A stretch of DNA of 64,000 nt from Pseudomonadota bacterium (GCA_039799905.1 JBDLRP010000026.1:64001-128000); one strand, 5' to 3'. Counted from the stretch's first letter, positions 25,898-64,000 are shown. Numbers and translations are program-made. The notes: generated by a model not told the origin, from the sequence alone.

Positions 25898-26014
25898 CCC
25901 CCAACCTCATTGCCACCAACCCTTTGCATGTTGTGCGAGAAGTGGCTTTCAGAAAAAAGCGCGCGATTATACTTTTGCGTGCGAGTTGCTGTTGGCCTGC
26001 CGGAGGGTTGCGAT

Positions 26015-26959
26015 ATGAGCATTGTACGCGGCAAAAGACTTCTCTGTGCGACGGACCTGTCGCACCCGCAGCTGGGTACCGAGCGTAATGCACTGGCTGT
26101 TGCAAACAGTCTGGAATGCGCGCTCACCTTCATTCACGTTCTCGAGGATGCCCCTTTGTTTTTGGGGCCCATGCCGTTTGAAGAGGGACAAAAATGGGAA
26201 CAACTGGAAACACGCTACCGCGGTGAGCTGCTCGCACAAACACAAATGCGGGCCGAAACAACGCTTGCTCCCCTGCGCGATGAGCACAATCACTTCCACG
26301 TGCAGGTCAAACTCGGAAACGCTGAAAATGAGATACTCGGTGTCCTCAACGACAAGTCTTCACGCTTTGCCGGTGTGATTGTCGGCAGACACCACCATTC
26401 CAGACTTTATTCGGCGATTTTCGGCAGTGTCGCACAAAGGATTCTTGAACAAAGTCTGGTTCCAGTGTTCGTTTTGCCACTGGCGGCTTCGGCACTGCAG
26501 CTCAATTTTTTGAACATTGGGCTGGCAACAACCATGCGCCCTGATAGCCACGGCGGTGAAAATCTGCTCAGGGAAATGCTTGAGTCTGATCCGACTCGGG
26601 CGCGTACAGCCCACCTTGCACACTGCTTTGAACGAGTTGGTCCCGCGTACAGCGGCTTCGAGACAACCGACGCATACGCAACCTACCGTGAACTTGAAAT
26701 GATATACGACCTCGCGGAATCACGACTGCAAAGAGCAATTGAAGACCGCGCGCGCGTTTTGCAGGACGATGGTTTTAAAGCTGTGGGTCACCTGCTGGTT
26801 GGACAGGCGGAGGACGAGCTCAGGCATTTCGCTGTCGACAACAAAATTGACTTGATTATATTCAGTCGGCACGCACGTGAGGGCACAAACCGTTTCCAAA
26901 TCGGCAGGATTGTGCGCCGATTTGTGCGCAACTCACCCTGTGCGATTGTCGTGATTTAA
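26015..26959 (+). CDS. Tandem universal stress protein
   Basis: LCATDLS, IHV, FGSVAQRIL..SLVPVFV and a second domain ending IG.IVRRFVRNSPCAIVVI. Confidence 0.88.
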   Translation: MSIVRGKRLLCATDLSHPQLGTERNALAVANSLECALTFIHVLEDAPLFLGPMPFEEGQKWEQLETRYRGELLAQTQMRAETTLAPLRDEHNHFHVQVKLGNAENEILGVLNDKSSRFAGVIVGRHHHSRLYSAIFGSVAQRILEQSLVPVFVLPLAASALQLNFLNIGLATTMRPDSHGGENLLREMLESDPTRARTAHLAHCFERVGPAYSGFETTDAYATYRELEMIYDLAESRLQRAIEDRARVLQDDGFKAVGHLLVGQAEDELRHFAVDNKIDLIIFSRHAREGTNRFQIGRIVRRFVRNSPCAIVVI

Positions 26960-26975
26960 TGATTGGAGTTCTGCT

Positions 26976-28274
26976 GTGGAATTTGCAGATAATAGAATCA
27001 ATTCGCGATTGGGTAAAATTGAAAAGGCATTCTCGATTCTGCCCAGCAGCGGCAATGTGGTTCTTTCGATGGCTGCTGCAGAACCCGAGTTGTTTTTTGA
27101 GAATTTGCATTTATCTGCCCGTCGTCATCAGGGTTTGCATATCCACTGCGCAAACCCGACGAAGCCTTATCCATGCTTCACGGACGCAGGTCTCACAGAA
27201 CACTTTCACTTCAACGTCATGTTCCTGACCGCAGCAGTTCGAAACCTGCAAGGTCACAACCTCGTGCACTATGTGCCACAGCATCTTTCGCGCTGGTCGC
27301 AAAATTTGACCCGTCGACGGAACATTGATGTTTTTTGGGGAACGTGCAGCCTTCCGACCGCCAACGGATTCGTAAGTCTGGGTGTGAACGCCTGCTACGA
27401 ACCTGAGCTACTGCGCAAGGCGCGCATTGTGATTCTTGAAATTAACCCCCATATGCCCGTGGTGTATGGCGACACGTTCGTGCCCGTCGATCAGGTCGAT
27501 TTATTTCTGCAGAGTCAGCGTCCGCTGCCCGTGCTGGCCTGCGAAAAAACAGACCCTGTCGACAGGCAGATTGCTGCCTATATTTCCGACTTGGTACCTG
27601 ATGGAGCGACAATCCAGCTCGGCATTGGTGGTATTCCAAATGCCGTGGGCGAATGCCTGACCCACAAAAAACACCTTGGCGTGCACACAGAATTGTTCAC
27701 CGAATCTATGCGCACGCTTTATGAGCACGGTGTGATCGACGGGTCCGAAAAAACACTCTGGCCGCGTAAGATGATTTCGACATTCGTATATGGCTCGGCG
27801 GATCTTTATAAATTTGTTGGTGAGAATCCGGCTGTCGAATTGCATCCCGCCTCGATCGTCAATGACCCGAACCGTATCTGCAGAAACCACCGAATGATCT
27901 CAATCAACACGGCCGTGGAGATCGACATCACAGGACAGGTCTGCTCTGAATCGGTGGGGCACAAAGAACTGAGCGGTGTCGGCGGAGCGACGGATACGCA
28001 TATCGGCGCACAACGCTCCCAAGGCGGACGCGGAATTATCGCTTTGCGTTCGACCACAAACGACGGAAAAATTTCAAAAATCGCCTTCGAACTGAAAGCC
28101 GGAGCCAAAGTTTCCATCAGCCGCAACGACATCGATACCGTGGTCAGCGAATATGGTGTGGCCGAGCTGATTGGTTTGTCGGTCGCGGAACGCGCCCAAG
28201 CTCTCATTCGTATTGCTCATCCGGATATGCGCGACGAGCTGCTCTTCAATGCACAAAGGGCTGGCTACATCTGA
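26976..28274 (+). CDS. Acetyl-CoA hydrolase/transferase family (4-hydroxybutyrate CoA-transferase-like)
   Basis: DGATIQLGIGGIPNAV, LGVHTE, EIDITGQV, VVSEYGVAEL, IAHPD. Confidence 0.92.
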   Translation: MEFADNRINSRLGKIEKAFSILPSSGNVVLSMAAAEPELFFENLHLSARRHQGLHIHCANPTKPYPCFTDAGLTEHFHFNVMFLTAAVRNLQGHNLVHYVPQHLSRWSQNLTRRRNIDVFWGTCSLPTANGFVSLGVNACYEPELLRKARIVILEINPHMPVVYGDTFVPVDQVDLFLQSQRPLPVLACEKTDPVDRQIAAYISDLVPDGATIQLGIGGIPNAVGECLTHKKHLGVHTELFTESMRTLYEHGVIDGSEKTLWPRKMISTFVYGSADLYKFVGENPAVELHPASIVNDPNRICRNHRMISINTAVEIDITGQVCSESVGHKELSGVGGATDTHIGAQRSQGGRGIIALRSTTNDGKISKIAFELKAGAKVSISRNDIDTVVSEYGVAELIGLSVAERAQALIRIAHPDMRDELLFNAQRAGYI

Positions 28275-28284
28275 GTTTTTGTCC

Positions 28285-28313
28285 TTGACCGGCATGGTAT
28301 CTCTCCGTATTGT
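28285..28313 (+). promoter_or_regulatory. Sigma-70-like promoter
   Basis: TTGACC-N17-TATTGT upstream of the ATG at 28338. Confidence 0.5.
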
Positions 28314-28337
28314 CCGCCGAAATTCAAGGGGAGTACT

Positions 28338-29120
28338 ATGAAACGACGCACAGTGTCCGTTGCAGTCTTGTCTCTGGCCCTCATGGCATCCTGCGGAACG
28401 CCGACCGCCACCACTTCACGCACAGTTTCGACCATCCAACGCGGCGATATTATAATCGAAACAATTGAAACATCGACAAATCCGCAGATCTCTGCAGCCG
28501 AAGCGGAAGCGGAAATCCGCGCTGCTCTCTCGCAGCAGAGCATCAGCGCAACTCAGGGCGAACTGACGAATTCCACGGTCGGCGGCCGTGTGCTCGAAAA
28601 CACCTCGACAGACAAAATTGACACCATCGTGCGCATCGTGAATGCGTTCGCGGATTTGGCAAAGCGGGTCGTTGCACCCGACACGCCCCTGATGAAAGGC
28701 AACATCATCGCGGAGGCGCGCCCCGCCGGATTGGAGCCGATGGCTCTGCAAAACAGCAAGTACTCGGGGAAGTCCTACAAAAAACTTTTCAAGAGCCTGC
28801 TGGGCTTCAAGCTCGTCGAAGTCGAATACAAAATCGCCTATTCATACGGAGCTGATAACAACGGCAAAGGACAGTACATTCCTCACGTTCTTTTCACTCC
28901 GATGAAAATTGTCCTCGATCCGCTTTGGCACCTCGAGGCCGACTCCCTCTCGCTCGCTCCCAGAAATTGCGGTACCATTGAGGACCCCATCGCGGCATTG
29001 GAGTTCAATCTCGCCTTCAAGGCGAAAGGTCTGACCGGCACAATTATGGCCACAGATACTTTCTCATTGAATGCTCAAACGGGTGAGCTTGTTGCCGACG
29101 GGAGGGATTTTCAGCCCTAG
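28338..29120 (+). CDS. Hypothetical lipoprotein
   Basis: GGGGAG RBS, MASC lipobox, beta-rich C-terminal half. Confidence 0.75.
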   Translation: MKRRTVSVAVLSLALMASCGTPTATTSRTVSTIQRGDIIIETIETSTNPQISAAEAEAEIRAALSQQSISATQGELTNSTVGGRVLENTSTDKIDTIVRIVNAFADLAKRVVAPDTPLMKGNIIAEARPAGLEPMALQNSKYSGKSYKKLFKSLLGFKLVEVEYKIAYSYGADNNGKGQYIPHVLFTPMKIVLDPLWHLEADSLSLAPRNCGTIEDPIAALEFNLAFKAKGLTGTIMATDTFSLNAQTGELVADGRDFQP

Positions 29121-29150: not shown

Positions 29151-30347
29151 ATGAACAATCCTACGGAAGGCAGCCCGTCCGCAACGACTCTCAGCGCGGG
29201 TATCATCCCCCGCACATCTTCATCCGAAATTGTTGAAATGAGTTGGTTCGCACCCATCTGCTCGGATGACTTCGAGTATCTGGGAGTTCCAGAATCCCGC
29301 CTGAAAAGTTCTTGGGCTCATGTTTCCAAAATTGCTCTGGAGGCGGAGCGGCAGGGATTCGACAACATGCTTTGTCCGAGCAGCTATCAGGTCGGACAGG
29401 ACACACTCACCTTCGCAGCTGCTTTGGCTCCACAACTGAAAAAAATGAGTCTGCTGGCTGCCATCCGCTGTGGCGAAGTGCATCCTGCGATGCTCGCACG
29501 CACACTTGCCACGCTCGATCACATGCTCGAGGGGCGGCTCACGGTCAACATCATTTCATCCGACCTTCCCGGCGAAACACTCGACTCGAAAACTCGCTAC
29601 GCAAAATCGCGTGAAGTCTGTCAGATTCTTCGCCAGTGCTGGACTCGCGAGGAAATCAATTTCGAAGGCGAATTCTACAAGCTGAAATTGCCAGCGGCGC
29701 CGTGCAAGCCCTATCAGCAAAACGGCGGGCCGCTGTTGTATTTCGGCGGACTCTCTCCCGACGCGCTGGACCTGTGTGCTCGCGAGTGTGATGTTTTCCT
29801 GATGTGGCCAGAAACCGAAGATCGTCTGCGTGCCCACATGCAAGAGATGACAACACGTGCCGAAACCTATGGCAGAAGGGTCGATTTTGGCCTGCGCGTA
29901 CACATGATTGTCCGCGAAACAGAGCAAGAAGCCCGCGCCGCTGCGAGAAAACTCGTTTCAAAACTTAATGACGACAAGGGCAACGAGATCCGCAGCCGCG
30001 CACTCGACTCCAAATCGTTCGGTGTTGCCATGCAGGCGGAAATGCGCACTCTGGCTGATGACGACGGATTTGCAGAAGACCTGCTTTGGACCGGTGTCGG
30101 ACGCGCGCGCTCGGGGTGCGGTTGTGCGCTGGTCGGCACGCCCGATCAAATTGTCAGCAAACTAAACCGCTACATCGACATGGGGATCCGCTCGTTTGTT
30201 CTTTCGGGATACCCGCACTTCGATGAATGCGGATTGGTCGGAAAATACGTTTTGCCGCGGTTCCGCAGAGGCAAGCTGGCGGAAATCCAAGGCCGCATTC
30301 CCACATCACTTCCCAACACGCCGCTCGGCGCCGGAGTCCGTCAATGA
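29151..30347 (+). CDS. smoC: LLM-class flavin-dependent monooxygenase, probable sulfoquinovose monooxygenase (SmoC/SquD-like)
   Basis: SsuD-family motifs ([39 protein letters not shown]). Segments [37 protein letters not shown] and TPLG.G.R match my recollection of SmoC. Confidence 0.85.
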
Positions 30348-31234
30348 TGAATACTCAACTCTCTCCCATGGTCTTTGGTGCATGGCGTCTGGCTGACAAC
30401 AAATCCGAAGCCACGCCCGATGCGGTTGCCCGCAAAATTCTCATGGCACTCGAACACGGTATCACGACCTTCGACCATGCCGACATCTACGGAAACTACG
30501 AGTGCGAAAATCTATTCGGTCAGGCGATGGCAAAGCACTCCATTCCGCGCGGTAAAATTCAGCTCGTAACCAAATGCGGCATCAAGCTTGTCTCGGAAAA
30601 CCGTCCAGAGCATGCGCTGAAGACCTACGAAACCACGCGGGCACATATCGTCCGTTCGGTCGAAACGTCGCTTAAAAACCTGCGCACCGATGTCATCGAC
30701 CTTTTGCTGATTCACCGCCCCGATCCGCTGATGAATCCGTCTGAGGTCAACGAAACGTTCAGCGACCTGCACAAGCAGGGCAAAGTCAAATCATTTGGCG
30801 TTTCCAACTTTTCGCACTCGCAGGTGCGCATGCTGCAAAGCAGGCTGAGCATGCCGATCGTCACCAATCAAATCGAATTTTCACTGTTGCACACTGACCC
30901 CATGCACAACGGTCAGCTCGACCAATGCGTTGAACTGAACATGATTCCGATGGCGTGGTCACCGCTTGCTGGCGGCCGGCTTTTCAGCCAGAACGACGCA
31001 CGCTCAACTCGAGTGCGGGAGTGCCTCACCGAGCTGGCGAAAAAATATCGTGTCACAGCTCCCGAGACGATCGCATATGCATGGCTGCTCAAACATCCAT
31101 CCAAAGTTGTTCCCGTGCTGGGGACAGGTCAGGAAGACAGACTGAAAGCTGCCGTAAACGCGCTTAAGGTAGAGCTTGAGCACGATGACTGGTTCCGTCT
31201 GCTCAAAGCATCGGTCGGTCACGATGTGCCGTAA
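30344..31234 (+). CDS. smoB: Aldo/keto reductase, probable 6-oxo-glucose reductase (SmoB/YdhF-like)
   Basis: [48 protein letters not shown] overlap with the monooxygenase. Confidence 0.8.
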
Positions 31235-32513
31235 GGCTGGTTTGGGGCGCTTTGCTTTGGCACTCGTGGTGCTGGCAGCCGCCTGCACAAAAAACAACGA
31301 GAAACCGGTGCTGAAAGTTCTGACTTTCCGCGACAGGCAGTCGTCCGCTCTGCGCGAAGCCATTCCCGCATTCGAGGCGGAGCACAAAGTCCGCGTGCAA
31401 TTTGATGACATTCCGGCATCGACCGTCGCAACAAAAATGATGACCGACCTCGCAGCAGGCGGGACTTATGACGTCTATGCCGTCGATGAACCGTTCATCC
31501 CTCAATTTCATGAGGCACTTTTGCCGCTGGCGCAGTGGCCCGATGCACCTGCAGCTGATGAGGTTGGGAAATTCGAGGGCAAGGCCGTCGAGGCTGCAAC
31601 TGTCAATGGCGCGCTGATCGGTTTGCCGGTCAACGGAAATGTCTACCAATATGTTTATCGTAAAGATCTGTTCGAATCGCCGGATGAAAAGTTGGCCTTT
31701 GAAAAACGCTTTCAGCGCGTGCTGAAACCAGCCGAAAATTTATCGGAACTGGTTCAACTGGCGCAGTTCTTTCATCGTCCTCCCAAGCTTTACGGCTTCG
31801 CGCCTTTCACCAAAATGTCTGAGGGAACGACTGTCGAATTCCTATGGCTTCTTGCCGCTGCGGGCCATCCACTCGGGCATCGGTCACCACCGCCCGACAC
31901 AACTGTCATTCATTCGGCTCTTACCACCTATGCACAACTGATGCAGACAGCTCCGAAAGCGGCACGTGCGTGGCACCACACAGAGCGGATGTCGGCCTAC
32001 GCCAAAGGCAAAGTGGCGCAGATGATGACGTGGAACAGCTTCTTTTTCGACCTCGAAGATGAATACAAGTCGCTCGTCGTCGGTCGCACGGGCTACGCAA
32101 AATCACCCGGCTCCACGGCTACGAGTCTGGCCGGAACGTGGATTGCCGGTGTGCGTAAAAACTCACAGCAGACAGCTGCCGCGAGTGCGTTCATCCGTTG
32201 GTGGACCTCGCGCACAGTCAATGAAACTCTGGTGCGCAAAGGACTCAGCAGCGCGCGTTCCGATGTGCTGACAAACCCGACTCTTTCGCGTCAATTCCCT
32301 TGGCTCGCAACAACTCACATCAACTTCGGCAATGCCTTTCTGCGGCCGCGCCACAAACAGTACCGTGCGGCATCTGATGAAGTCAGCAAAGCGTTCACCC
32401 GCTGGGTGGCGGGTCAGACGTCCGATCAAGAGGCAGCGCAATATCTACGCAGTGCTCTCGAACGAATGGATGAACTGGCCATGGGCCGCACAGCGCGAAA
32501 GGAATCACGCTGA
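31224..32513 (+). CDS. Sugar ABC transporter substrate-binding lipoprotein
   Basis: AAAC lipobox, GLP....YVYRKDLF and GKVAQM features of CUT1 binding proteins. Confidence 0.88.
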   Translation: MCRKAGLGRFALALVVLAAACTKNNEKPVLKVLTFRDRQSSALREAIPAFEAEHKVRVQFDDIPASTVATKMMTDLAAGGTYDVYAVDEPFIPQFHEALLPLAQWPDAPAADEVGKFEGKAVEAATVNGALIGLPVNGNVYQYVYRKDLFESPDEKLAFEKRFQRVLKPAENLSELVQLAQFFHRPPKLYGFAPFTKMSEGTTVEFLWLLAAAGHPLGHRSPPPDTTVIHSALTTYAQLMQTAPKAARAWHHTERMSAYAKGKVAQMMTWNSFFFDLEDEYKSLVVGRTGYAKSPGSTATSLAGTWIAGVRKNSQQTAAASAFIRWWTSRTVNETLVRKGLSSARSDVLTNPTLSRQFPWLATTHINFGNAFLRPRHKQYRAASDEVSKAFTRWVAGQTSDQEAAQYLRSALERMDELAMGRTARKESR

Positions 32514-33403
32514 TGCTCAGTGCAAAATCGCAGCGCTCGCTGCTTGTCTTCCTTTTCCCGGGCTGTGCACTTCTCACTTTGCTGATTGGCTGGCCTGTAC
32601 TTGAAAGTGCCGTCAGTTCGCTGAGTGTCTCTGCAAACACAGCCGGACAGAGCGATACCTTTGCCGGAATCGCTCATTACAAGACGCTGCTCTCGCAAAG
32701 TTCATTTTGGAATGCGCTGTGGCTGGCGGCTCTTTTTACAATCACGACCACTTCATTAGAACTCGTCATCGGCCTAGCTGTCGCGCTGTTTCTTTATTTT
32801 CAGCGCAGCCTGCCGCGTGTCGTCGAAATTCTTCTTATTCTTCCCATGTTCATTTTGCCAGTCGTCTCGGGGCTGACTTTTCGTTATATTTATGATCCCA
32901 ACGACGGGCCGCTGTCTTTTATTTTTGATCGGCTGGGCTATGAACCCGCGGCTCCGCTGGCCGATTCCTTTTGGGCTTTTTGGTCGATCGTTGTGCAGGA
33001 CATTTGGAGAATGTGGCCATTTTTATTCCTGATCATTTATGCAGGCCTCAAGGCTCTGCCGCGCTCCGCTCAGGAAGCGGCGCGCATGGACGGCGCAACG
33101 ACAGCTCAGATCATCCGATATGTCCTTCTTCCTGCGTTGCGCCCGACACTGGGTATTGCCGCTGGTTTGAAAATCATGGAGTCATTGAAGGTCTTCACGG
33201 AAGTTTACGTCATGACGGGCGGCGGCCCTGGTGAATCGACCTCGCTGCTCTCACTGTTCGTTGTGAAGCAGGCCTTCCATTTCTTTCAAGTGGGGCCTGC
33301 ATCTGCCGCATCTATTCTTCTGCTCGCACTGGGAATGAGTTTGGCTTGGACGGTCACCCGTATGCAAAACCGCCCAACTGTCGCAGGAGGTGCGAGCCGA
33401 TGA
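32513..33403 (+). CDS. Carbohydrate ABC transporter permease
   Basis: EAARMDGA loop, MTGGGPGEST, about six TMs. Confidence 0.92.
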   Translation: MLSAKSQRSLLVFLFPGCALLTLLIGWPVLESAVSSLSVSANTAGQSDTFAGIAHYKTLLSQSSFWNALWLAALFTITTTSLELVIGLAVALFLYFQRSLPRVVEILLILPMFILPVVSGLTFRYIYDPNDGPLSFIFDRLGYEPAAPLADSFWAFWSIVVQDIWRMWPFLFLIIYAGLKALPRSAQEAARMDGATTAQIIRYVLLPALRPTLGIAAGLKIMESLKVFTEVYVMTGGGPGESTSLLSLFVVKQAFHFFQVGPASAASILLLALGMSLAWTVTRMQNRPTVAGGASR

Positions 33404-34233
33404 TGGATGCACAAAAGCGCCCTTTGCCGAGTTATGCCAAGGCTATTGTCGCGTTCTTGCTTTTTGTTCAGCTGGCGCCAATTCTCATCATCATTCAGAC
33501 GGCATTCAAAACACCACGCAGTCTGCTCGAGAGCGGCTCATTTTCGCTGGACGGCTGGACGCTGAAAAACTTTCACCGCATTTTTGTCGAGCAGAGCCTC
33601 GCACCCGACTTGCTCAACTCAATCGGCATCGCATTTGGTTCGATGCTGCTTTCCGTCAGCTGCGGCTCGCTCATGGCCTTTGCACTCACACGCTGGCAAG
33701 GGCCGGCTCGCAAGCATCTGCTGACGACACTACTGGTGGCTCGGCTGCTGCCTCCGGTCGCGCTGGCCTTGCCGCTTTTTCTCGTGCTGCGCGGCTTGGG
33801 ATTGCACGACACGCACGGCGGGTTGATTCTGGCGCACACGGCGCTGAACTTTCCGCTCGCAACCTGGATTTTGATGCCATTTATGGACTCCGTGCCGCGC
33901 GCGCTTGAAGAAGCTGCGTCGCTGGACGGTGCAAGCCGTGCGCAAACATTTCTCCATGTGGTGCTGCCCGTCAACAAGACTGGATTGGTTGTCGCCGCCT
34001 TGTTTTGTTTTTTGATGAGTTGGAACGATTTCCTGTTCTCGCTCATACTCGCCGGATCGGCCGTGAAAACTGCTCCGCTGACACTCAACGGATACGTCAC
34101 GGGCTTTGGCACTGAGTGGGGCCCGCTGTGCGCGGGGGCGTGCGTCTTGCTTCTTCCTGTTTTTGCGCTGTCATTCAAACTTCATCAACACATGATTGCC
34201 TCGCCCACGCAGGGCGGAGTCAAGGGAGCGTAA
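33400..34233 (+). CDS. Carbohydrate ABC transporter permease
   Basis: LEEAASLDGA loop, SWNDFLFS. Confidence 0.92.
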   Translation: MMDAQKRPLPSYAKAIVAFLLFVQLAPILIIIQTAFKTPRSLLESGSFSLDGWTLKNFHRIFVEQSLAPDLLNSIGIAFGSMLLSVSCGSLMAFALTRWQGPARKHLLTTLLVARLLPPVALALPLFLVLRGLGLHDTHGGLILAHTALNFPLATWILMPFMDSVPRALEEAASLDGASRAQTFLHVVLPVNKTGLVVAALFCFLMSWNDFLFSLILAGSAVKTAPLTLNGYVTGFGTEWGPLCAGACVLLLPVFALSFKLHQHMIASPTQGGVKGA

Positions 34234-34234
34234 T

Positions 34235-36346
34235 ATGAGACTCTCAGAAGAATCTGCACAGGACATCAATTTTGCATTGACTCCCGAATGGCCGAGCCTG
34301 ACGGCGCGGGCACGCGGAGCCGTGCGCATGACTCCAGTGACAGGGTGTCGGTTGCTGCCTCAGCGAGAGCGCAATCAGTTCGTTCAGTTTGAATTGCAAT
34401 TCAAGGACAGCAGCAAAAGCAAACTGTACATCGGCGCGCTCGACACTACGCCGGCAGCCTGGGTGATTTGGATGGGTGAACAACCTCGCCGCCATGATCT
34501 TCTCAACACGGTTGTTTCGAACGAAATCAGGGTGGAGGAATCACGCACGGGCTGGACCCTGCGCTCGGCGTTTGCAACAGTGGACATCGACCAGTCATCA
34601 GCAGCGCTGTGCATCAGAAATTCACTCGGCCAATGTGTATGGCAATCGGTCGGCAAAGATCTTTTTGTCGGTGATGTGCCAATGAGCTTTGCTGCCTTCA
34701 GGCACGCAGACGGTTTCGGCATGACCTTTGATTTTGCAGACACGCAACAGATCTGGGGCGGCGGTGAACAGTTCGGCCCAACAAATTTGCGCGGACGAAT
34801 TTATGACGTAATGAACAGCGACGCTCTCGGCGTCAACGGCCACCTGCGCTACCAAAGCACTCCGTTCTTCATCACCGAACGTGGCCATTCATTTGCAACA
34901 CTGCAGTGTGAACCGGCACGCATCGATTTCGGCTCCCGCCGTCATGACATGACGACCTTCTCATCCGATGGTCAAACGCTCGGGCTTTATTTGGCGATGC
35001 CGACCAATGCGAAACAGGCTATTGAGAATTGGCGTGCTCTGATGGGTGGCGTCAGCAGTGTTCCGGAGTGGAGTTTTGCGCTCTGGTTGTCGCGCTGTTT
35101 TTACAAAGACGAAAAAGAATTGCGCTCAGTGATTGAAGGCAACCGCACGCACAAGCTGGGAGCAGGTGTCATAAACCTCGACGCGCGTGCGTGGATGCGT
35201 GCACAAACGCGCACGGATTTTGTTTGGGACACATCGCGCTGGAGTCCTTATCAGACATTTATTCCTTGGCTCAGGGAGCAGGGTTTTCATGTTTGCCTCT
35301 GGGAGAATCCCTACGTTTCTTCGGCAACGGAAAAACTCTACGAAGAAGGCGCTCGCCTCGGCTACTTTGCCAAGACCAAATCGGGAGATGTTTATCCCTA
35401 TCAGTGGGTCCCAACCGGTCTGGAAGGTTTTCCGCAGCCGCCCGTTGCGGGATTGGTCGACTTCACAAATCCAAAAGCCTGTGACTGGTGGAAAGAACAG
35501 CACCGTCCGTTTTTGCGTGCCGGTGTGACGTGCTTCAAAACAGACTTTGGCGAGGAAATTCCGCACGACGCTGTGTTTGCCGATGGAAGCACTGGCCTTC
35601 AACTGCGCAACGTATACTCAGATTTATACAACCTGTGCGTCATGGAAGTGATGCGCGAAGAGTGCGGCGAGGAAGGAATTCTTTGGGCACGATCGGGCTA
35701 TGCAAAGATGGGTAAAACTCCCGTCAAATGGGCAGGCGACAGCCAGACCTCGTGGACAGCACTGCGCGCATCGCTGCGCGGTGGACTTTCGCAGGCTGTG
35801 GGTGGAGCTGTGTTCTGGTCGCATGACATCGGCGGATTTTACGGACCCAGTCCGGATGCCGAGTTGTTCACTCGATGGTCTCAGGTCGGTCTGTGGGGAA
35901 GCCATGCACGCATGCACGGCACCTCGCCGCGCGAACCTTGGGAGTTCGGTGCAACCGCCATGCAACAAGTGCGCAAGGACGTTGCTCTGCGCAATGCCCT
36001 GCAGTCTTATTGGGTGGCGTGCGCCGCGGAGTGTGTACGCGAGCAAAAGAGCTTTGTGCGACCACTGTGGATGCTCAATCCGCAGGATGCACTCAGCTGG
36101 ACCATCGAAGATCAGTTCCTCGCAGGTTCCGATGACGTTGTGGTTGCGCCCTATCTCACTGCCGAAGGCGGACGTCGCGTTTACCTTCCTTCAGGAGAAT
36201 GGCTTTGCCTCAACAACGGACGCACTTTGGCGGGGCACTCGCTCGAGCAGATTGACCGCTGGAGTGAATGTCCTGTCTTCGTGCGGACCAGCTCGCGCTG
36301 GCTCAGCCTGTTCAAAAACTCTTTTGCGCAGATTTATGGGCGCTGA
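34235..36346 (+). CDS. GH31 alpha-glycosidase (YicI-like), candidate sulfoquinovosidase
   Basis: WGGGEQF, PEWSFALWLS, WENPYV, VDFTNP.A..WW, FKTDFGE nucleophile, WAGD acid/base, WSHDIGGF, REPW. Confidence 0.9.
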   Translation: MRLSEESAQDINFALTPEWPSLTARARGAVRMTPVTGCRLLPQRERNQFVQFELQFKDSSKSKLYIGALDTTPAAWVIWMGEQPRRHDLLNTVVSNEIRVEESRTGWTLRSAFATVDIDQSSAALCIRNSLGQCVWQSVGKDLFVGDVPMSFAAFRHADGFGMTFDFADTQQIWGGGEQFGPTNLRGRIYDVMNSDALGVNGHLRYQSTPFFITERGHSFATLQCEPARIDFGSRRHDMTTFSSDGQTLGLYLAMPTNAKQAIENWRALMGGVSSVPEWSFALWLSRCFYKDEKELRSVIEGNRTHKLGAGVINLDARAWMRAQTRTDFVWDTSRWSPYQTFIPWLREQGFHVCLWENPYVSSATEKLYEEGARLGYFAKTKSGDVYPYQWVPTGLEGFPQPPVAGLVDFTNPKACDWWKEQHRPFLRAGVTCFKTDFGEEIPHDAVFADGSTGLQLRNVYSDLYNLCVMEVMREECGEEGILWARSGYAKMGKTPVKWAGDSQTSWTALRASLRGGLSQAVGGAVFWSHDIGGFYGPSPDAELFTRWSQVGLWGSHARMHGTSPREPWEFGATAMQQVRKDVALRNALQSYWVACAAECVREQKSFVRPLWMLNPQDALSWTIEDQFLAGSDDVVVAPYLTAEGGRRVYLPSGEWLCLNNGRTLAGHSLEQIDRWSECPVFVRTSSRWLSLFKNSFAQIYGR

Positions 36347-46123: not shown

Positions 46124-46798
46124 TCAGGGCAGAACTTTCAACGCATTCAAAAAATTCAGTAGCGAAGTTTTATCTGCAGCCGAAAGTGCAGAGCCGAGTG
46201 GCATGCTTCCCTTCGATACTTCCGATGCAGCCGCCGATGACCATTGCTTGACCGACACGAAGTCCTTCATATTCGACTGACGGCCCACATGACACGTCTG
46301 ACACTTTGTGTCGATGATCGCTTTGATTCCTCCGTTATAGTCAGCCTGCAATTTTGCCATCGGATCAACGACTGGCGGCGGAGGAGCTGGCGGTGCCGGC
46401 GGCTGTGGAGCTGGTGGCGCCGGCGGCTGAGGAGCTGGTGGCGCCGGCGGCTGTGGAGCAGGTGGTGCTGGCGGCTGTGGAGCCGGTGGTGCCGGCGGCT
46501 GAGGGGTCGTTCCATCATTTACCGCTGCGTCATCATCGTCCTCATCATCGTCCTCATCGTCGTCTTCATCGTCGTCTTCATCGTTCTTTTGTTTTTTTGA
46601 TTTGCCTTTCTGTTTGGTCGTCGCTCCCTGACCATCTTTTGTTTTCATACCTGACTTCTTACCAAGCTCAAGTTGCTCATCAGCAGTGCCAGAAGCAAGG
46701 CTAGCGACCGCATCTTGCGAATTGGTATTATCCGTGCCGCATGAAACGGCCAAAATGGCAGAAAAACACACCACAAATGGGAACAATGGAAACCTCAT
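46124..46798 (-). CDS. Lipoprotein c-type cytochrome with acidic and Pro-rich linkers
   Basis: GAGGAGG RBS, AVSC lipobox, KCQTCH and downstream SMP (candidate Met ligand). Confidence 0.85.
   Translation of the reverse strand: MRFPLFPFVVCFSAILAVSCGTDNTNSQDAVASLASGTADEQLELGKKSGMKTKDGQGATTKQKGKSKKQKNDEDDDEDDDEDDDEDDDDAAVNDGTTPQPPAPPAPQPPAPPAPQPPAPPAPQPPAPPAPQPPAPPAPPPPVVDPMAKLQADYNGGIKAIIDTKCQTCHVGRQSNMKDFVSVKQWSSAAASEVSKGSMPLGSALSAADKTSLLNFLNALKVLP
46383..46504 (-). repeat. 24-bp coding tandem repeat, five PQPPAPPA units
   Basis: Periodic ggagctggtggcgccggcggctg-type units with synonymous variation. Confidence 0.9.
46531..46583 (-). repeat. 12-bp coding repeat (EDDD)n
   Basis: tcatcgtcgtct-type units encoding DEDDDEDDDEDDDEDDDD. 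Confidence 0.85.
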
Positions 46799-55875: not shown

Positions 55876-57000
55876 ATGGCCAAGCTGGTCATCAAGGATC
55901 TGAACAAGGTCTACGAAAACAAAGTTGAGGTTCTGAAAAACGTCAACATCGAGGCCGCGCACGGAGAGTTTCTTGTCCTTGTCGGGCCATCAGGATGCGG
56001 CAAATCGACACTCCTGCGGATGATTGCCGGGCTCGAAGATGTGACGTCGGGTAACATCCAAATCGGCGATCGGGTCGTGAATGAACTCGCCCCCGCTGAA
56101 CGTGACATTGCAATGGTATTTCAGGACTACGCGCTCTATCCGCACATGACAGTGCGCGAAAATTTGAGCTTCGGACTGCGCATCAAGAAAAGACCGCAAG
56201 ACGAAATCGATGAGCGCGTTCAAACTGCAGGCAAGATGCTCAACATCGACCATCTTCTCGATCGCAAACCAAGCCAACTTTCGGGCGGACAACGCCAACG
56301 CGTGGCCATTGGCCGTGCTATCGTCCGCAAGCCCGCTCTGTTTTTGTTTGACGAGCCGCTCTCCAACCTCGATGCTCAGCTGCGCAGCCAGACCCGCATC
56401 GAGCTTGCTGCACTGCATCAAAAAGTCGGCGCCACGGTTGTCTATGTGACACACGATCAGGTGGAAGCCATGACGCTGGCAGACCGCATCGCAGTGCTCA
56501 ACAAGGGCCGCGTGCAACAACTCGGCTCTCCGCTTGAGCTCTACAATAACCCAGTGAACACCTTCGTTGCGGCATTTATCGGTAACCCCAGCATGAATTT
56601 CTTCAAAGGACAGCTGGACGTTTCGGGCGGACGCAAAACCTTTACATTCAACGGTCTGAGTTTCGACCTGTCGGATGCGCCGACCCCGAAAACCTCGGGC
56701 AACTACACTCTTGGTCTGCGTCCCGAATCACTTAAAGTTCTGGCCAAAGAAGGACGTGAGTCGGAAGGGCGTACCGATTGCACGCCAAAAGTATTGCTCG
56801 TGGAACCGCACGGGCATGAGACTCATCTCGTGGCCACGATTGGGGGTCAGCAGGTGATCATTCGGTCAGCAAACCCCAAACGCCTGCAAGTCATGGAAAC
56901 AGCCGTACGCGGCTCGGAACTTGCAACCACTATTGATCGCAAAGCACTGCATTGGTTCGACTCCACGGAAGAAGGCGGACGCGTGAATGAATTGGTTTAA
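55876..57000 (+). CDS. Sugar ABC transporter ATP-binding protein (MalK/MsmX/UgpC type)
   Basis: [46 protein letters not shown]. Confidence 0.96.
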
Positions 57001-60000
57001 CAATACTCTCGAGCATAAGTCAGGGTTCAGATTTTCAATTATTGTCGCGACACTGATCGCAGCCCTGAGCGGCTGCCGATCGTCGTCGGCACCGATCTCG
57101 GGTGCGCGGCTGAGTCAGCTGGCTGCTACGAGCGAGCCCACGTATCTTTGGGGGCAGCTCGCGACAGAAGCCGAACCCTCTGCAGAATTGCAGCGACTGC
57201 GCCGAAATCAGCGCGGCAATGTCAACAACAACGCAGAACTTCCGCAACTTGAAATTCAAACAAAAATGATTGGGGAAAGCGGTGAGCAGGAACTGAGCTT
57301 TCGTGCGCACCAAGGAGCGAAAGTATTCTATACGCTCGACGGCTCCATTCCAATTGTCACCGGCATGCGTCCGCAGGGAAGCACGAAAACTTTCAATGCC
57401 AATGAAAGAATCTCGCAGCCGACGCTGGTCCGCGCGATCGCCGTAGATCAACGCGGTGTGGCCTCTTATTTGCGTTCGGCAATCGTTACGCCCAAACGTG
57501 CCGATTTCAAGCTGAGCAAACTGCCGCCGCAGAGCAAACAGGTGAAGGCTGTTTACGTCACCGGCTCATTTCGCGGCTGGTCGACCGGATTCGACGACAA
57601 CTATCGCCTGACACCGCAGACGGATGGCTCATTTCAGCGCACGGTTTTGCTCGATCGCACCCATGAGGTCCTCTATAAGTTTGTCGTCCGCTATGAAGAC
57701 GAAACGTTCTCTTGGCTCGCCGACGGCAGTCAGCCACAAAGTGGATTAGCACCCTACAACAACAACATTCTTCTCTCGCCGCGGGCACAGCTCGCCAAGT
57801 CGTTTATCGGCAAGAAAGATGGCCTGCTTGATGAGGCGGCCATTGACCTGAGCATGCAGTCGGTGGCTGCGATTGATGCAGGTGAGCGTGTTGTCAGATT
57901 CAAACTGAAAATGTTCGAAGGCGACGCTGAGAGTGTGTCTGTCGCGTTCTCGGATGGTCAGCAGATGGCGCTCGCTCCGCAATCTTCCTACACCGTCGAT
58001 TCGCTGCGTTACACCGTGTACTCAGGCTTGCTGACGCTGCCCGAGAGTTCGATCCGTTCGTCTTTCGTGGTGAAAGCCAAAGACAACGAAAATGTATTCC
58101 GTATCGGCCGCGCGGGAATCATCACCGGCGACCCGTTCTCCTCTGCGCAGCGTCCAAACACCTTCGATTTCAACTACAACTCCGTTACACAACAAATCAA
58201 CGGGGAAGACCTCTACCAAGTGCCGCTGTGGTCGGTCGATGCGACTTGGTATCAAATTTTTCCAGAACGTTTCCGTAACGGAGATGTTTCGAACGACGTC
58301 CTCGGCGAGTTTCCGACGGAATGGGAAAAGAGCCGTCCTGCGCTTTCGCGCCTCGACAGAACGATTTCTCCATGGACAGGAAGCTGGTTCAGCTTCACTC
58401 CAGTCGAAAAGAATATGGAGCGCATCGTCAGGCAAACCCAGCCTGAGCTCGACCCGCGCGAGATTCAACGACAGATTATTTTTACCCGCCGCTATGGCGG
58501 CGACCTGCGCGGTGTGAAGGACGCCCTTCCCTATTTGAAGGCGCTGGGCATCACCGGAGTGTACTTCAATCCGGTTTTCGACTCGGATTCGCTGCATCGC
58601 TACGACACTAAAGACTACCGCCATGTCGACCCGAAACTTGGGCCAATGACGGTTGGCGCAGACGGCAAACCCGATCTGTACGAAGACGACAAAAAGCTGC
58701 TTGCCGCTGAAAAACTCGATGACCCGTCGACCTGGAAATACACACGCGCCGACAAGGAATTCATGGCGCTGGTCACCGAACTGCAGGCAAATGGCATCCG
58801 TGTTGTGATTGACGGAGTTTTCAACCATTCGGCCACAGACGGGCCGCTGGTTGAGGACATTGCACGGCGTGGCCGCGCGTCTCCGTACTACGACTGGTTT
58901 GCCACTTCGTACGAAGGTGAGGCGAATTATTATGCACGCTCCTGCCAGCTGTCCGAATTCTACCCCGACGCCGGCGAGTTTCCATTTGCAAGCAAAATCC
59001 GCTTTGACTCGTGGGCCGGCTTTTGTCCGCTGATCAATCACCGTCAAGGCTTTCCAAACGGCGCTTTGCATCCCGGATTGCAGAAACATATTTTCGCAGT
59101 CGTGGATCGCTGGTTTGAACCAAAGAACATCGACGGAATTCAGTTCAACGGCGTGGACGGAATTCGCCTCGACGTGTACGCAGACGTCCCAGTGTCTTTT
59201 TGGCGGCTTTTCAGAAAGCATCTGAAGAGCGTCAAGCGTGACGCTTTGATCATCGCCGAAGACTGGTACGACGGCTTTGACATGCTGCAGGGCGACCAAG
59301 CCGACGGCATCATGAACTATCGCGCGCGCACTCTGGCCGAGAGCTGGTTCATCAACCCCGACCAGCGCAACAAGTTCACACCCAGCGCCGCGCAGAACTT
59401 CCTTGAGACTCGTCTGAACGGTTACCGCGAGCACATCAAACATGCGCTCTGGACGATGCTCGACAGTCACGACACAGACCGCTTCCTGAGCAAAACTATC
59501 TGGCAAAACCGCTGGCTTTCAACCCGCCCGCAGGATGGCAACAGCTGGGACAACGATACGGTCAACAAACCTGACCGTGGTGCGCTGTATTCCAACGACA
59601 AACCCGGTTTGCTGGAAAAAGAGTTTTACAAGGGGATGGTCGCATTTCAAATGGCTTACGTCGGAGCACCAGTCGTATATTACGGTGCTGAAATTGGCAT
59701 GTGGGGAGCGGACGATCCGACCTGCCGCAAACCGATGGTCTGGGACGACCTGAGCGCCGGACAATTCGAAACACAGTGCGTCACGCACCCCGGTGCATGG
59801 TGCCTCGAAAACACTGGCGTGAAGTTTTCTTCTGAAGCCGACAAAGACATGCTCGCCGTCCACAAGCGCATCATCAAAGCGCGCAACGAACATCCCGCAT
59901 TGCGCAGAGGCAAGTTGAACTCATCGCTGTCGCTTGTTGTCAACGGACAAGCCGTTTCGGTCGGCAGTCCGAGTGCCGACTGGACTTGGCTGTGGGGTTT

Positions 60001-60214
60001 CGAACGCGCCTTCGGCGACTCGAACTTCGCATACTTCCTCTCCAACGAACTGATGAGCAAAGATGCCCAAACAGTTTTGTTGCAAACGCGCTTTACTCCG
60101 GAAAAAGAAGCAGTTGAGCTTGTCTCGGGACGTTCATACCCTGTAGATGAAAGAGGTCGCATCAGTGTGACGATCGGGCGCGAACGGGCTGTGCTGTTCG
60201 TCCAACCCCGGTAA
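56987..60214 (+). CDS. Multidomain GH13 alpha-amylase/neopullulanase-like lipoprotein
   Basis: LSGC lipobox, FYTLDGS.P, VYVTGSF.GW...YKF, YQIFPERF.NGD, DGVFNH, GIRLDV, AEDW, LDSHD. Confidence 0.92.
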   Translation: MNWFNNTLEHKSGFRFSIIVATLIAALSGCRSSSAPISGARLSQLAATSEPTYLWGQLATEAEPSAELQRLRRNQRGNVNNNAELPQLEIQTKMIGESGEQELSFRAHQGAKVFYTLDGSIPIVTGMRPQGSTKTFNANERISQPTLVRAIAVDQRGVASYLRSAIVTPKRADFKLSKLPPQSKQVKAVYVTGSFRGWSTGFDDNYRLTPQTDGSFQRTVLLDRTHEVLYKFVVRYEDETFSWLADGSQPQSGLAPYNNNILLSPRAQLAKSFIGKKDGLLDEAAIDLSMQSVAAIDAGERVVRFKLKMFEGDAESVSVAFSDGQQMALAPQSSYTVDSLRYTVYSGLLTLPESSIRSSFVVKAKDNENVFRIGRAGIITGDPFSSAQRPNTFDFNYNSVTQQINGEDLYQVPLWSVDATWYQIFPERFRNGDVSNDVLGEFPTEWEKSRPALSRLDRTISPWTGSWFSFTPVEKNMERIVRQTQPELDPREIQRQIIFTRRYGGDLRGVKDALPYLKALGITGVYFNPVFDSDSLHRYDTKDYRHVDPKLGPMTVGADGKPDLYEDDKKLLAAEKLDDPSTWKYTRADKEFMALVTELQANGIRVVIDGVFNHSATDGPLVEDIARRGRASPYYDWFATSYEGEANYYARSCQLSEFYPDAGEFPFASKIRFDSWAGFCPLINHRQGFPNGALHPGLQKHIFAVVDRWFEPKNIDGIQFNGVDGIRLDVYADVPVSFWRLFRKHLKSVKRDALIIAEDWYDGFDMLQGDQADGIMNYRARTLAESWFINPDQRNKFTPSAAQNFLETRLNGYREHIKHALWTMLDSHDTDRFLSKTIWQNRWLSTRPQDGNSWDNDTVNKPDRGALYSNDKPGLLEKEFYKGMVAFQMAYVGAPVVYYGAEIGMWGADDPTCRKPMVWDDLSAGQFETQCVTHPGAWCLENTGVKFSSEADKDMLAVHKRIIKARNEHPALRRGKLNSSLSLVVNGQAVSVGSPSADWTWLWGFERAFGDSNFAYFLSNELMSKDAQTVLLQTRFTPEKEAVELVSGRSYPVDERGRISVTIGRERAVLFVQPR

Positions 60215-60254
60215 GCCGACTGCGGCACCACTATTTGCAGGAAGGACTAACAAC

Positions 60255-60692
60255 ATGAGTGAGACCAAGTCGCGCCTGAGCGAAGATATCAAAAAAGCCA
60301 TGAAAGATGGCGAAAAAGAACTTCTCGGCGTGTTGCGCATGATGTTCAACGAAGTCCGCAATGCAGAGATCAACGATCTCAAGGAACCTGGCCGTGTGCG
60401 CACCGAAGCTGAGGTCGTTCAGATTTTGGCCGCCTATCAAAAACAACTGCAAAAAAGCATGGCTGAATATCCGCCGGATCGGCAAGCACCGCTCAAGGCT
60501 GAACTCGCCATTGTGGAACGCTACCTCCCCAAAGCCCTGTCGCCTGCCGAACTTGAAGGTTTTATCAAAGACTATCTCGGCAAAACCAGCGAGAGGAATT
60601 TCGGCCTGCTGATGAAGGCGATTCAGGGCGAACTGGTTGGACGTGTTGACGGCAAGTCACTCTCGGAAACTCTCAAGCGGGTACTCGGATAA
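60255..60692 (+). CDS. GatB/YqeY domain protein
   Basis: L.EDIK.AMK, LRM, E..IVERYLP..LS, G..MK, GRVDGK. Confidence 0.9.
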   Translation: MSETKSRLSEDIKKAMKDGEKELLGVLRMMFNEVRNAEINDLKEPGRVRTEAEVVQILAAYQKQLQKSMAEYPPDRQAPLKAELAIVERYLPKALSPAELEGFIKDYLGKTSERNFGLLMKAIQGELVGRVDGKSLSETLKRVLG

Positions 60693-61411
60693 TGAAGCCA
60701 GTTTATGTCATTCAGGGCGCCAACTCAGCGATGGCGCGGTCATTGATTTCGCTCAATCCAAATGCCCGTTTCGTTTTGATGAGCGAAAATCCGTTGAGCT
60801 ACACTCCCGATGTCGAGCACATTTCGTTTCAGGGCTCGGCGCTTGACGAAGATTTCGTTAAAAAATCAATTCAAGCTGCAAATGAAAGCTTTCAGGGTAT
60901 CGACGGCTACGCACATTTTTGCGGCTCGATTTTGCTCAAGCCGCTGCACATGACTCGCGCAGACGAATGGCAGGACCTGATGAACAAGCACGTCACAACT
61001 GCATTCATTGGCCTAAAAGGTATTTTGCCAATCTTCAAACAGCAGGGCCGTGGCAGTGTTGTTTTGATCTCCAGCACCGCAGCCCGCATCGGCTTGCAAA
61101 ATCACGAAGCAATTGCAGCGGCGAAAGGTGCACTTGAAGCTCTCGTGCGATCATGCTCTGCCACCTATGCGCCTGTGCGCTTCAATTGCGTTGCTCCAGG
61201 GTTGACACGTTCACGAATGAGCCAACGCATTGTCGAAAATGAAGTGTCCCTGAAGGCCAGTCTGAATCTGCAGTCCATCCAGCGTTTGTCAGAAGCCGAA
61301 GATCCGGCGCGTGCCGTATCTTTTCTTTTGAGTGAACACAGCCAAATGATCACCGGTCAGACGATTGCGACCGATGGCGGATTGTCGTCCACGAAACGAT
61401 TGAACCCTTAA
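60692..61411 (+). CDS. Short-chain dehydrogenase/reductase
   Basis: GSILLKPLH, ISSTA, NHEAIAAAKG, NCVAPGL, ITGQ.I..DGG. Confidence 0.88.
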   Translation: MKPVYVIQGANSAMARSLISLNPNARFVLMSENPLSYTPDVEHISFQGSALDEDFVKKSIQAANESFQGIDGYAHFCGSILLKPLHMTRADEWQDLMNKHVTTAFIGLKGILPIFKQQGRGSVVLISSTAARIGLQNHEAIAAAKGALEALVRSCSATYAPVRFNCVAPGLTRSRMSQRIVENEVSLKASLNLQSIQRLSEAEDPARAVSFLLSEHSQMITGQTIATDGGLSSTKRLNP

Positions 61412-61428
61412 TTCAAGAGTGTGACGCA

Positions 61429-61938
61429 ATGAAAATTCATTTTTTGTTAGCAGCCATTCCGATGTTGCTGCCTGCATGCCAGACGCCGCGAGAGTTCAAT
61501 CAGCCCGATGCCTCAACCAACGGCGCCAGCGACGACCTCAGCATGGACGACGAAAAACTTCTCAGGTTGAGAGGCTACGTTGCCAAAGCAGGCTTTCCAC
61601 GCTGGGACCACAACCGTGCGACCTGTATTATTCTTTGCGAATCGGGCGGCCGTGCGAACGCACGTTCAGGCCCACACGTCGGACTCTTCCAAATCAACGA
61701 ATCTTACCCGAGCAGTGAAGCAGGTCGCGGCGTTAAACATCCGACTCAAGCCGCTTGGGATGCCACCGGCAAACGCTGTGGAAGCAACCTCGAAGATCCA
61801 CAGGTCAATGCAGATTGTGCATTTGTGCGACTTTCGCGCGCCGGCTGGAAAGATTGGGATTGCGGTGGAGCGGTGTCATCTCTGACGCCAAAGGTGGAGG
61901 CCTGCATCAGTCGGCTCGACAAACGCCTCGGAAAATAG
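61429..61938 (+). CDS. Small lipoprotein with lysozyme-like/transglycosylase (Rpf-like) domain
   Basis: LPAC lipobox, CIILCESGG, GLFQIN, L.DP..N..CA, GWKDW.C. Confidence 0.75.
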   Translation: MKIHFLLAAIPMLLPACQTPREFNQPDASTNGASDDLSMDDEKLLRLRGYVAKAGFPRWDHNRATCIILCESGGRANARSGPHVGLFQINESYPSSEAGRGVKHPTQAAWDATGKRCGSNLEDPQVNADCAFVRLSRAGWKDWDCGGAVSSLTPKVEACISRLDKRLGK

Positions 61939-61984
61939 GTACCCGCTACCTGCGAAGATTTTCCAAAAAGATGTTCAAATTCAA

Positions 61985-62827
61985 CTACTGGCAATTCGCT
62001 GTTCCGGCGCCGACCCTGTAAACATTGGGTGCTGCGCAGCTCGCAAGTTTTGCCGACGTAAACGTGATCGTATTTTGTTTTCCGCTGAAGGCAGCCACTG
62101 CGGCCTCGAGTTTTCCATTGGCAGAAAAGGTCACGCTCGTTTTATTGCCGGACCCTCCCTGATAGCTCAATATGCCTGAAACTTTTGTATTGTTGCCTTC
62201 GATGTTCACGCTGCTGCCCTGACCTGACATTATGCATATTCCACGGATGGCATCGCCCTGCAGAGGTATATTCAGTGACCCGCCGCGATCGATATAAACG
62301 AGCAGAACCTCATCCCGCGCAACAGTGCCGGACACCAGCGGCCCAATCACCTTTGTCACGTCGACCTGCATAACCGAGGCACACGTCTGTTTGAATTTCT
62401 GGAGATTGCCTGCAACGGTTCCAAGGCTTCTGATATTTTCCAGTTTGAACTGAAATGCCGGCTCAGAGACTGAACCACCGGCCGAGCCCCCCGCTGTTCC
62501 TCCGGATGCGGAGCCGCCGGAGGAGCCCGTTCCGCCAGTTCCGCTGCCGTTGGACTGATCCGATGCCAAAACAGCATCCTCAATCGATTTTGAAAGTTCC
62601 GCCTCTGCTTCATCTTGCTCAGCTTCGCTCAATCCAGTCTCAAGAACGATACTGTCGCCCTCACCTCGCTCCAATTGCTCCTTGACCTGCTTGACGCGAT
62701 CGGTACCGCTTCCCGACACCGAGAACGCAACACGGTAAGAGTCGGCAGAGGAAAATTGTGTTGGCTGACTGCTGCATGCAATGACAGTGAAGAGCGACGC
62801 TGTTGCACTGAAATATAGAGCTCTCAT
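61985..62827 (-). CDS. Hypothetical lipoprotein with Gly/Ser linker
   Basis: VIAC lipobox, acidic helix, GS-rich linker, beta-rich C-terminal domain. Confidence 0.7.
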   Translation of the reverse strand: MRALYFSATASLFTVIACSSQPTQFSSADSYRVAFSVSGSGTDRVKQVKEQLERGEGDSIVLETGLSEAEQDEAEAELSKSIEDAVLASDQSNGSGTGGTGSSGGSASGGTAGGSAGGSVSEPAFQFKLENIRSLGTVAGNLQKFKQTCASVMQVDVTKVIGPLVSGTVARDEVLLVYIDRGGSLNIPLQGDAIRGICIMSGQGSSVNIEGNNTKVSGILSYQGGSGNKTSVTFSANGKLEAAVAAFSGKQNTITFTSAKLASCAAPNVYRVGAGTANCQ

Positions 62828-62961
62828 TACAGTCCCCCCACCCGAACAACTGGCCCAATTTCGCATTGGCTGGAGCGGTATTTTTCACAGAAATCTTAAG
62901 GGATATTTTTTTTACGCAGTGTATTTCGATAAGTTAGACACCGAAAACATGACCCCGGCGG

Positions 62962-63804: not shown

Positions 63805-63828
63805 GACGTGCTCACTCCCTGTGCTCGA

Positions 63829-63999
63829 TTACCTGCGGTTCGGATCTTCGGTCATTTTTGAGCTCTTCATCCACACCGCTGTCAGCACCAACAAAATCAG
63901 AAAAATCACGATCGCATAGGCGGCCGAAAAGCTATAGCGGTTGTAGACAAAAGCTTGTTTGTAAAGGTCACTGACCAGAATATCGGCCCCCTCGGAACC
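63829..63999 (-). CDS. C-terminus of sugar ABC permease, MalF-like (partial, not in ORF track)
   Basis: Translates GSEGADILVSDLYKQAFVYNRYSFSAAYAIVIFLILLVLTAVW...RR*. Confidence 0.85.
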   Translation of the reverse strand, partial: GSEGADILVSDLYKQAFVYNRYSFSAAYAIVIFLILLVLTAVWMKSSKMTEDPNRR

Positions 64000-64000
64000 G

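Follow-up and report, generated by a model that had tools for sequence, protein, structure and literature searches.

A predicted sulfoquinovose monooxygenase operon with a glycosidase from a separate GH31 clade in uncultured Silvanigrellaceae

How would a freshwater bacterium of the Oligoflexia take up and open sulfoquinovose (SQ), the sugar of the sulfolipid headgroup, and which enzyme would release it from its glycosides? The question is raised by a six-gene operon in a stretch of 64,000 nucleotides (GCA_039799905.1, JBDLRP010000026.1:64001-128000; hereafter the window), which lies on a 156-kb contig within a 3.4-Mb genome that is 94% complete and belongs to an uncultured genus of Silvanigrellaceae. 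The operon is best read as a sulfoquinovose monooxygenase (sulfo-SMO) pathway in which SQ would be released by a predicted sulfoquinovosidase of a separate, uncharacterised clade of GH31, and we put the probability of this reading, which rests on sequence comparison, at about 0.7. The sulfo-SMO pathway as such is very probably present in the lineage, judged by SmoC orthology and a retained SmoB lysine, and a SmoC orthologue and a SmoB homologue in one cluster are what PMC13372026 takes as the mark of sulfo-SMO. The novel part is the front end, namely the clades of the GH31 and of the sugar-binding protein, while the pathway is known and the lineage has barely been noted for it.

All six open reading frames are open on the same strand (Table 1), and they are joined by ATGA at 30344, an 11-nt overlap from 31224, TGATG at 32511, ATGA at 33400 and TAA-T-ATG at 34231. 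A sequence-only reading of the window had given the operon's position, these junctions and the six protein families, all of which were recovered. The gene order is whole on a single contig in 11 of the 18 regions from relatives, six others being truncated by contig ends and one having a different arrangement, and the operon region is covered in 27-30 of 30 bins as short contigs in four runs from four studies. A promoter scan gave 4 sites against 4.9 expected. Recent foreign origin of the operon in the source genome was considered and is unsupported, as its GC content (0.53-0.57) is close to that of its neighbours (0.52-0.55).

Table 1. Genes of the operon and the unlinked ATPase gene, with positions in the window
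Feature	Position	Strand	Length	Family or model
smoC, SQ monooxygenase orthologue (luciferase-like, FMNH2-dependent)	29151..30347	+	398 aa	PF00296
smoB-like aldo-keto reductase, predicted 6-oxo-glucose reductase	30344..31234	+	296 aa	PF00248
CUT1 sugar-binding lipoprotein of a separate clade, predicted to bind SQ or SQ-glycosides and distinct from SmoF	31224..32513	+	429 aa	PF01547/PF13416
ABC permease, MalF/UgpA-like	32513..33403	+	296 aa	PF00528; GlcT/UgpA best NCBIfam models, under cut-off
ABC permease, MalG/UgpE-like	33400..34233	+	277 aa	PF00528; GlcU best NCBIfam model, under cut-off
GH31 glycosidase, uncharacterised clade near GH31_3/SqgH, predicted sulfoquinovosidase	34235..36346	+	703 aa	PF01055+PF13802+PF21365
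ABC ATPase of MalK/UgpC type, not in the operon, probably shared	55876..57000	+		NF008653, over cut-off

The monooxygenase and the aldo-keto reductase

The monooxygenase is a SmoC orthologue. It scores 505 bits against RoSmoC (7OH2) and 494 against AtSmoC (7OLF), compared with 211 against MsuD and 197 against SsuD, and is 58% identical to proteins of the Ruegeria and Rhizobium clusters and 34% to SsuD. A tree of 28 sequences rooted on SsuD places it with proteins from smoC clusters of Novosphingobium, Ruegeria and Rhizobium, strains that were picked by cluster context and are not themselves characterised. The seven site residues of RoSmoC (Y136, S189, W206, R236, H238, Y341 and H343; PMC8795539) are all kept, as Y150, S202, W219, R249, H251, Y354 and H356. 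The claim of the sequence-only reading that the first protein matches SmoC is upheld. Two points weigh on the other side: the backbone support of the tree is weak (37-75), and all seven site residues also occur in E. coli SsuD, so that they are not diagnostic and the SQ specificity of SmoC stands on overall orthology. These shared residues, together with best NCBIfam models of SsuD type, would suit a general alkanesulfonate enzyme for sulfur scavenging whose sugar genes are unrelated neighbours. Such a role is highly improbable, since the SsuD-type models score far under their cut-offs (242 of 518 bits for TIGR03565, 236 of 510 for PRK00719), the genes overlap in a conserved order, and the source genome has no match to the enzymes that would use the sulfite (see below).

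The aldo-keto reductase (AKR) retains the catalytic tetrad (D44, Y49, K77 and H124), and its R125 and W205 correspond to R152 and W232 of SmoB; both of these, like the tetrad, are also present in YdhF. Its score is slightly higher with YdhF-like proteins (249-264 bits) than with SmoB (7BBY, 239 bits), a point against the assignment. On the other hand, K93 corresponds to the glucose-binding K120 of SmoB, where YdhF has Gly, and Lys is found at this position in 22 of 24 smoC-linked AKRs. The retained lysine, tetrad and R152 equivalent are consistent with the match to SmoB proposed before.

It is unlikely that the operon applies this chemistry to some other sulfonated sugar or glycoside, such as an epimer of SQ or one of its N-linked conjugates. 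Such a role would fit the fact that neither the binding protein nor the GH31, the two proteins that select the substrate, comes from a clade with a characterised member, and the determinants of SmoC specificity are not known (PMC8795539). The monooxygenase is, however, far nearer to two enzymes specific for SQ than it is to any other monooxygenase of solved structure, and the AKR retains the glucose-binding pair of K120 and R152.

In the smoC homologues of Algoriphagus, Emticicia and genome G067 (L048, L079 and L168), Leu replaces His343 and sodium/solute symporter-like genes adjoin, and two of the three have no adjoining AKR; these homologues may act on another substrate.

The GH31 glycosidase and its clade

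The GH31 is not an orthologue of Agrobacterium SmoI. Identity with the GH31_13 (YihQ/SmoI-type) enzymes is ruled out by 25% identity to YihQ, by absence of the Q/E-R-W-Y motif (F535 lies at the position of YihQ Y508), and by placement outside that clade. The protein belongs to a clade of 67 proteins at identities of at least 41%, with support of 100 in both trees. A profile search of 1.8 billion proteins gave nine clade representatives at 669 bits or more and 601 bits for the next protein, although part of this gap arises by construction because the profile was built from clade members. Taxon names are scarce in the clade; outside Oligoflexia genomes, one member is named Myxococcota. In the alignment, D437 and D502 fall on the two catalytic Asp residues of YicI and YihQ, and the structure model has a mean predicted local distance difference test score (pLDDT) of 93 with YicI, an α-xylosidase of E. 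coli (GH31_3), as its closest fold (template-modelling score 0.8).

The GH31 is probably a sulfoquinovosidase. With SqgH of Alteromonas macleodii (AmSqgH) it shares a GH31_3-like scaffold and the pattern D-[GA]-R-x-W-x5-R. The motif D316-A-R318-x-W-M-x4-R326 aligns gap-free with D-G-R-A-W-x5-R302 of AmSqgH; the match to R302 was read from the sequence and primers in the supplement of PMC12780224 and cross-checked through SqgH-like proteins in the alignment. Arg is found at the R326 position in 66 of 67 clade members and in all 114 SqgH-like proteins, and YicI has Trp there. By spacing and through YicI, K435 and F535 correspond to K412 and F513 of AmSqgH. The variants R302G, K412E and F513G of AmSqgH lose activity (readings of 1.4-2.5, with p near 6e-7 in comparison with wild type), whereas T377A is not different from wild type (74, p 0.08; PMC12780224). 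The T377 position is Pro in the source GH31, as it is in 24 of the 114 SqgH-like proteins.

The GH31 differs from SqgH in forming a separate clade with only 32-39% identity to the SqgH-like proteins, below the 50% cut-off of the SqgH survey (PMC12780224), and it lies outside the SqgH clade in both trees, in neither of which AmSqgH itself is included. A constrained tree that joins the two groups is better than a quick free tree by 19.6 log-likelihood units (p of 0.755 in the approximately unbiased test), whereas FastTree separates them; this comparison took 36 of the 77 rows of the FastTree alignment, with SqgH-like proxies standing in for AmSqgH. The GH31s of Photobacterium and Chelatococcus were checked as stand-ins and rejected. 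The setting differs too, in that SqgH goes with marine Gammaproteobacteria and a sulfoquinovose dioxygenase (sulfo-SDO) pathway (PMC12780224), and the window GH31 with SmoC in freshwater Oligoflexia.

It is also conceivable that SmoC and SmoB use free SQ, that the GH31 is an α-glucosidase or α-xylosidase, and that what the transporter carries is free SQ or a neutral glycoside. Several observations point this way and weigh against a sulfoquinovosidase: the closest solved relatives are α-xylosidases or glucosidases (YicI and BT0339); K435 and F535 are common to YicI (K414 and F515), so that only R326 and R318 discriminate; and a GH13 enzyme inside a sulfo-SMO cluster turned out to be a plain α-glucosidase (bioRxiv 2023.03.31.535182). 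Furthermore, 6 of the 24 smoC-positive genomes in a set of 131 from the phylum have no GH31 of the clade, among them two (G003 and G079) in which the smoC contig is short or cut, and one, G095, whose operon consists of smoC, smoB, the genes for the binding protein and permeases, and malK, i.e. a full transporter operon with no GH31. We nevertheless regard this alternative as improbable, if less so than a different sulfonated substrate. The invariant Arg pair is shared with SqgH where YicI, which is 32% identical and inactive on para-nitrophenyl sulfoquinovoside (PMC12780224), has Trp315 and, in place of Ala-Arg, Cys307-Phe308; other D-G-R-x-W GH31s likewise adjoin genes for SQ-isomerase-like proteins; and the clade is found only alongside smoC.

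This co-occurrence amounts to 18 of the 24 smoC-positive and none of the 107 smoC-negative genomes, after the GH31 of G105 (33%) had been dropped from an initial 19 of 131 as YicI-like. The counted genomes are kin, however, and the counts are not independent. Among metagenomes, searched with an alignment query as a single GH31 query gave none, the clade motif was found at 12 of 72 GH31 loci, and smoC is on seven of those 12, the other five being short contigs with at most 3.4 kb upstream. By comparison, smoC is on none of the 60 other GH31 loci, 20 of which have at least 6 kb upstream. Five of the seven smoC-bearing loci come from close kin of the source genus, and independent weight is therefore carried only by L095 and L096. 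In L095, smoC and the AKR gene are on the strand opposite to the GH31 gene and there is no transporter, so the link with smoC is kept despite a different layout.

Transport, missing functions and the proposed route

The binding protein is not orthologous to Agrobacterium SmoF: the match has an E-value of only 5e-8, weaker than to three other sugar-binding proteins, and the protein belongs to a separate clade of 54 relatives at identities of at least 41%. Its best plasmid matches are at 26-27%. Cys21 lies in a lipobox-like context. The operon has no ATPase gene, which in some other genera is a separate malK closing the operon; G015, G020, G018 and L096 have malK in this place. As the source genome has one MalK/UgpC-type gene, within a maltodextrin cluster of the window, and three CUT1 permease pairs, the ATPase is presumably shared. 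That maltodextrin-type cluster (55876-64000) also encodes a 1075-aa GH13 protein and a permease. The malK gene lies about 8 kb past the GH31 gene in relatives and 20 kb in the window, the larger distance being due to inserted CheB, histidine-kinase and other genes.

The operon resembles Agrobacterium tumefaciens smoA-I (PMC8795539) in that a single cluster unites a SmoC orthologue, a SmoB-like AKR, a CUT1 ATP-binding cassette (ABC) importer and a GH31, although the operon is not Agrobacterium-type throughout: the SmoC/SmoB route stands, whereas the operon lacks smoA, smoD and smoE, with no flavin reductase or regulator among its genes. It shares with the sulfo-SMO cluster on a Ruegeria TM1040 plasmid the adjacent smoC and smoB, likewise ordered, at identities of 58% and 42%; Roseobacter-type clusters have a tripartite ATP-independent periplasmic (TRAP) importer, Gfo/Idh/MocA (GH188-type), flavin reductase and GntR, none of which is in the window operon. 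The lack of a flavin reductase counts against the assignment, as the SmoA family (PF01613) is found in none of 33 genomes of the family, with 13 of 14 in the control. No SmoA-type flavin reductase was seen in the Novosphingobium region either, and the source genome gave no match to SsuE, Fre or GntR/LacI queries. An unlinked PF03358 reductase, encoded in the source genome at G000:C7:14416-15024, occurs in 26 of the 33 family genomes, both smoC-positive and smoC-negative, and is thus not a dedicated partner of SmoC. The source genome, at its 94% completeness, has no second GH31, no GH188, and no match to CysC, CysD, CysH, CysI or CysJ; CysD occurs in one of the 33 family genomes and in none of the source genus. 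In the absence of genes for sulfate assimilation, carbon is the likely gain, and, as far as an incomplete genome allows, SQ is likely used for carbon with export of sulfite. A 581-aa protein (G000:C42:40022-41767) has one nitrite/sulfite-reductase-like domain pair far below all family cut-offs and could not be identified as a sulfite reductase. The genome also contains a ROK kinase, GlpK, GlpD and a TauE-family gene.

From genes, orthology, residues and co-occurrence, from which we infer every activity, the following route is proposed. The lipoprotein and the two permeases would import SQ-glycerol or SQ with energy from the ATPase of MalK type that is encoded 20 kb away. The GH31, with D437 as nucleophile and D502 as acid/base, would cleave the glycoside, its sulfonate being held by R326 and perhaps R318. 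SmoC would then convert SQ with O2 and FMNH2 (reduced flavin mononucleotide), supplied by an unlinked housekeeping reductase, into sulfite and 6-oxo-glucose, which the AKR would reduce with NADPH, giving glucose. The ROK kinase would bring glucose into glycolysis and glycerol would be used via GlpK and GlpD, and sulfite would probably be exported rather than assimilated. The earlier proposal that the organism turns the sulfolipid headgroup of photosynthetic cells into glucose survives as a pathway assignment by orthology, with the change that the GH31 and the binding protein are not the counterparts of SmoI and SmoF.

Lineage, distribution and neighbouring genes

The source genome belongs to Silvanigrellaceae (class Oligoflexia, phylum Bdellovibrionota), in keeping with its earlier recognition as Bdellovibrionota/Oligoflexia-like. 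The same operon, with SmoC 85-95% identical, is found in three records named Silvanigrellaceae bacterium, one uncultured Silvanigrella sp. and one uncultured Oligoflexia bacterium. Upstream Usp and acetyl-CoA transferase genes are common to these relatives (66-78%), except on the short Oligoflexia contig, so that the operon is not the sole basis of the assignment. Within the phylum set, smoC is present in 24 of 131 genomes: all 12 other genomes of the source genus, 16 of 32 in the family, where the other large genus has it in none of its 13, and 7 genomes from four other families. Operon DNA occurs in sequencing runs described as metagenomes of freshwater, aquatic or lagoon type. A predatory way of life was considered and set aside, as cultured Silvanigrellaceae have been described as aerobic chemoorganotrophs.

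Sulfo-SMO has mainly been described from Alpha- and Betaproteobacteria (PMC8795539, PMC12890257) and was widened to Actinomycetota and Spirochaetota (PMC13372026). Table S9 of the latter lists one Oligoflexales genome as sulfo-SMO and no Silvanigrellaceae, which makes the earlier statement that no report exists in the lineage too strong; for Silvanigrellaceae, no report of SQ use was found, nor anything linking smoC or SQ with Bdellovibrio, in a literature from which most subscription papers were absent. Bdellovibrionota are not named in the searched passages and supplement of PMC13436972, a 2026 review according to which little is known about the taxa and uptake systems that turn over SQ in freshwater, and the studied isolates are probably terrestrial. 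The GH31 clade reaches at most 31% identity to YihQ, below the 40% cut-off of that review, so that surveys of this kind would count the genomes as sulfoquinovosidase-negative. This lake-and-river lineage keeps the predicted SQ pathway in every searched genome of its genus, and the GH31 and the binding protein are a candidate new marker gene and new importer. More broadly, we lean towards the view that the GH31 is a further sulfoquinovosidase lineage beyond YihQ and SqgH, that the lipoprotein founds a new family of SQ-glycoside-binding proteins, and that uncultured freshwater Silvanigrellaceae are overlooked single-cell degraders of sulfolipid from algae and cyanobacteria, which would keep the carbon, release the sulfur and be invisible to present sulfoquinovosidase surveys.

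Other arrangements occur within Oligoflexia. In two genomes of family f13 (G057 and G073; loci L025 and L170), SmoC and SmoB cluster with the source genus (bootstrap 97) ahead of other Silvanigrellaceae genera, and malK is absent from the operon as in the source genus; lateral transfer of the operon between Oligoflexia families is therefore likely. Among the layouts at L029, L169 and L167, which include G095, smoC, smoB and malK alone are present in G044 and G068. Before smoC in the window (25910-29120), the Usp and acetyl-CoA hydrolase/transferase genes are found across the whole genus and not in other genera, and only in some genomes are they separated by a gene for a 260-aa protein without a Pfam match. 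Farther downstream (46124-46798), a small protein combines an acidic stretch and Pro-Ala-Gln repeats with a CxxCH motif at its C-terminal end.

SqgH-like proteins appear well beyond marine Gammaproteobacteria, with Chloroflexota, Armatimonadota and Alphaproteobacteria among the names. A plasmid of Deinococcus peraridilitoris (L177:2331-13994) encodes an SqgH-like GH31 that has the counterpart of R302, an SftI-like isomerase, a PfkB kinase, a tagatose-type aldolase and an aldehyde dehydrogenase, a gene set that suggests a sulfo-EMP-like (sulfoglycolytic Embden-Meyerhof-Parnas) cluster. Another cluster (L098:31-12289, also L099) contains a GH31 of a group that includes a Dictyoglomus turgidum member and has D-G-R-A-W but no R302 equivalent. 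It further encodes a GntR-like regulator, an aldehyde dehydrogenase, a transaldolase, a LarA-type racemase, an SftI-like isomerase (under cut-off), an ABC importer whose binding protein is 34% identical to that of the window, and a UxaA-family dehydratase, which we take to resemble SuyB. By its gene content, this cluster looks like sulfo-transaldolase and sulfolactate desulfonation in one organism. According to PMC13436972, that combination has not yet been shown.

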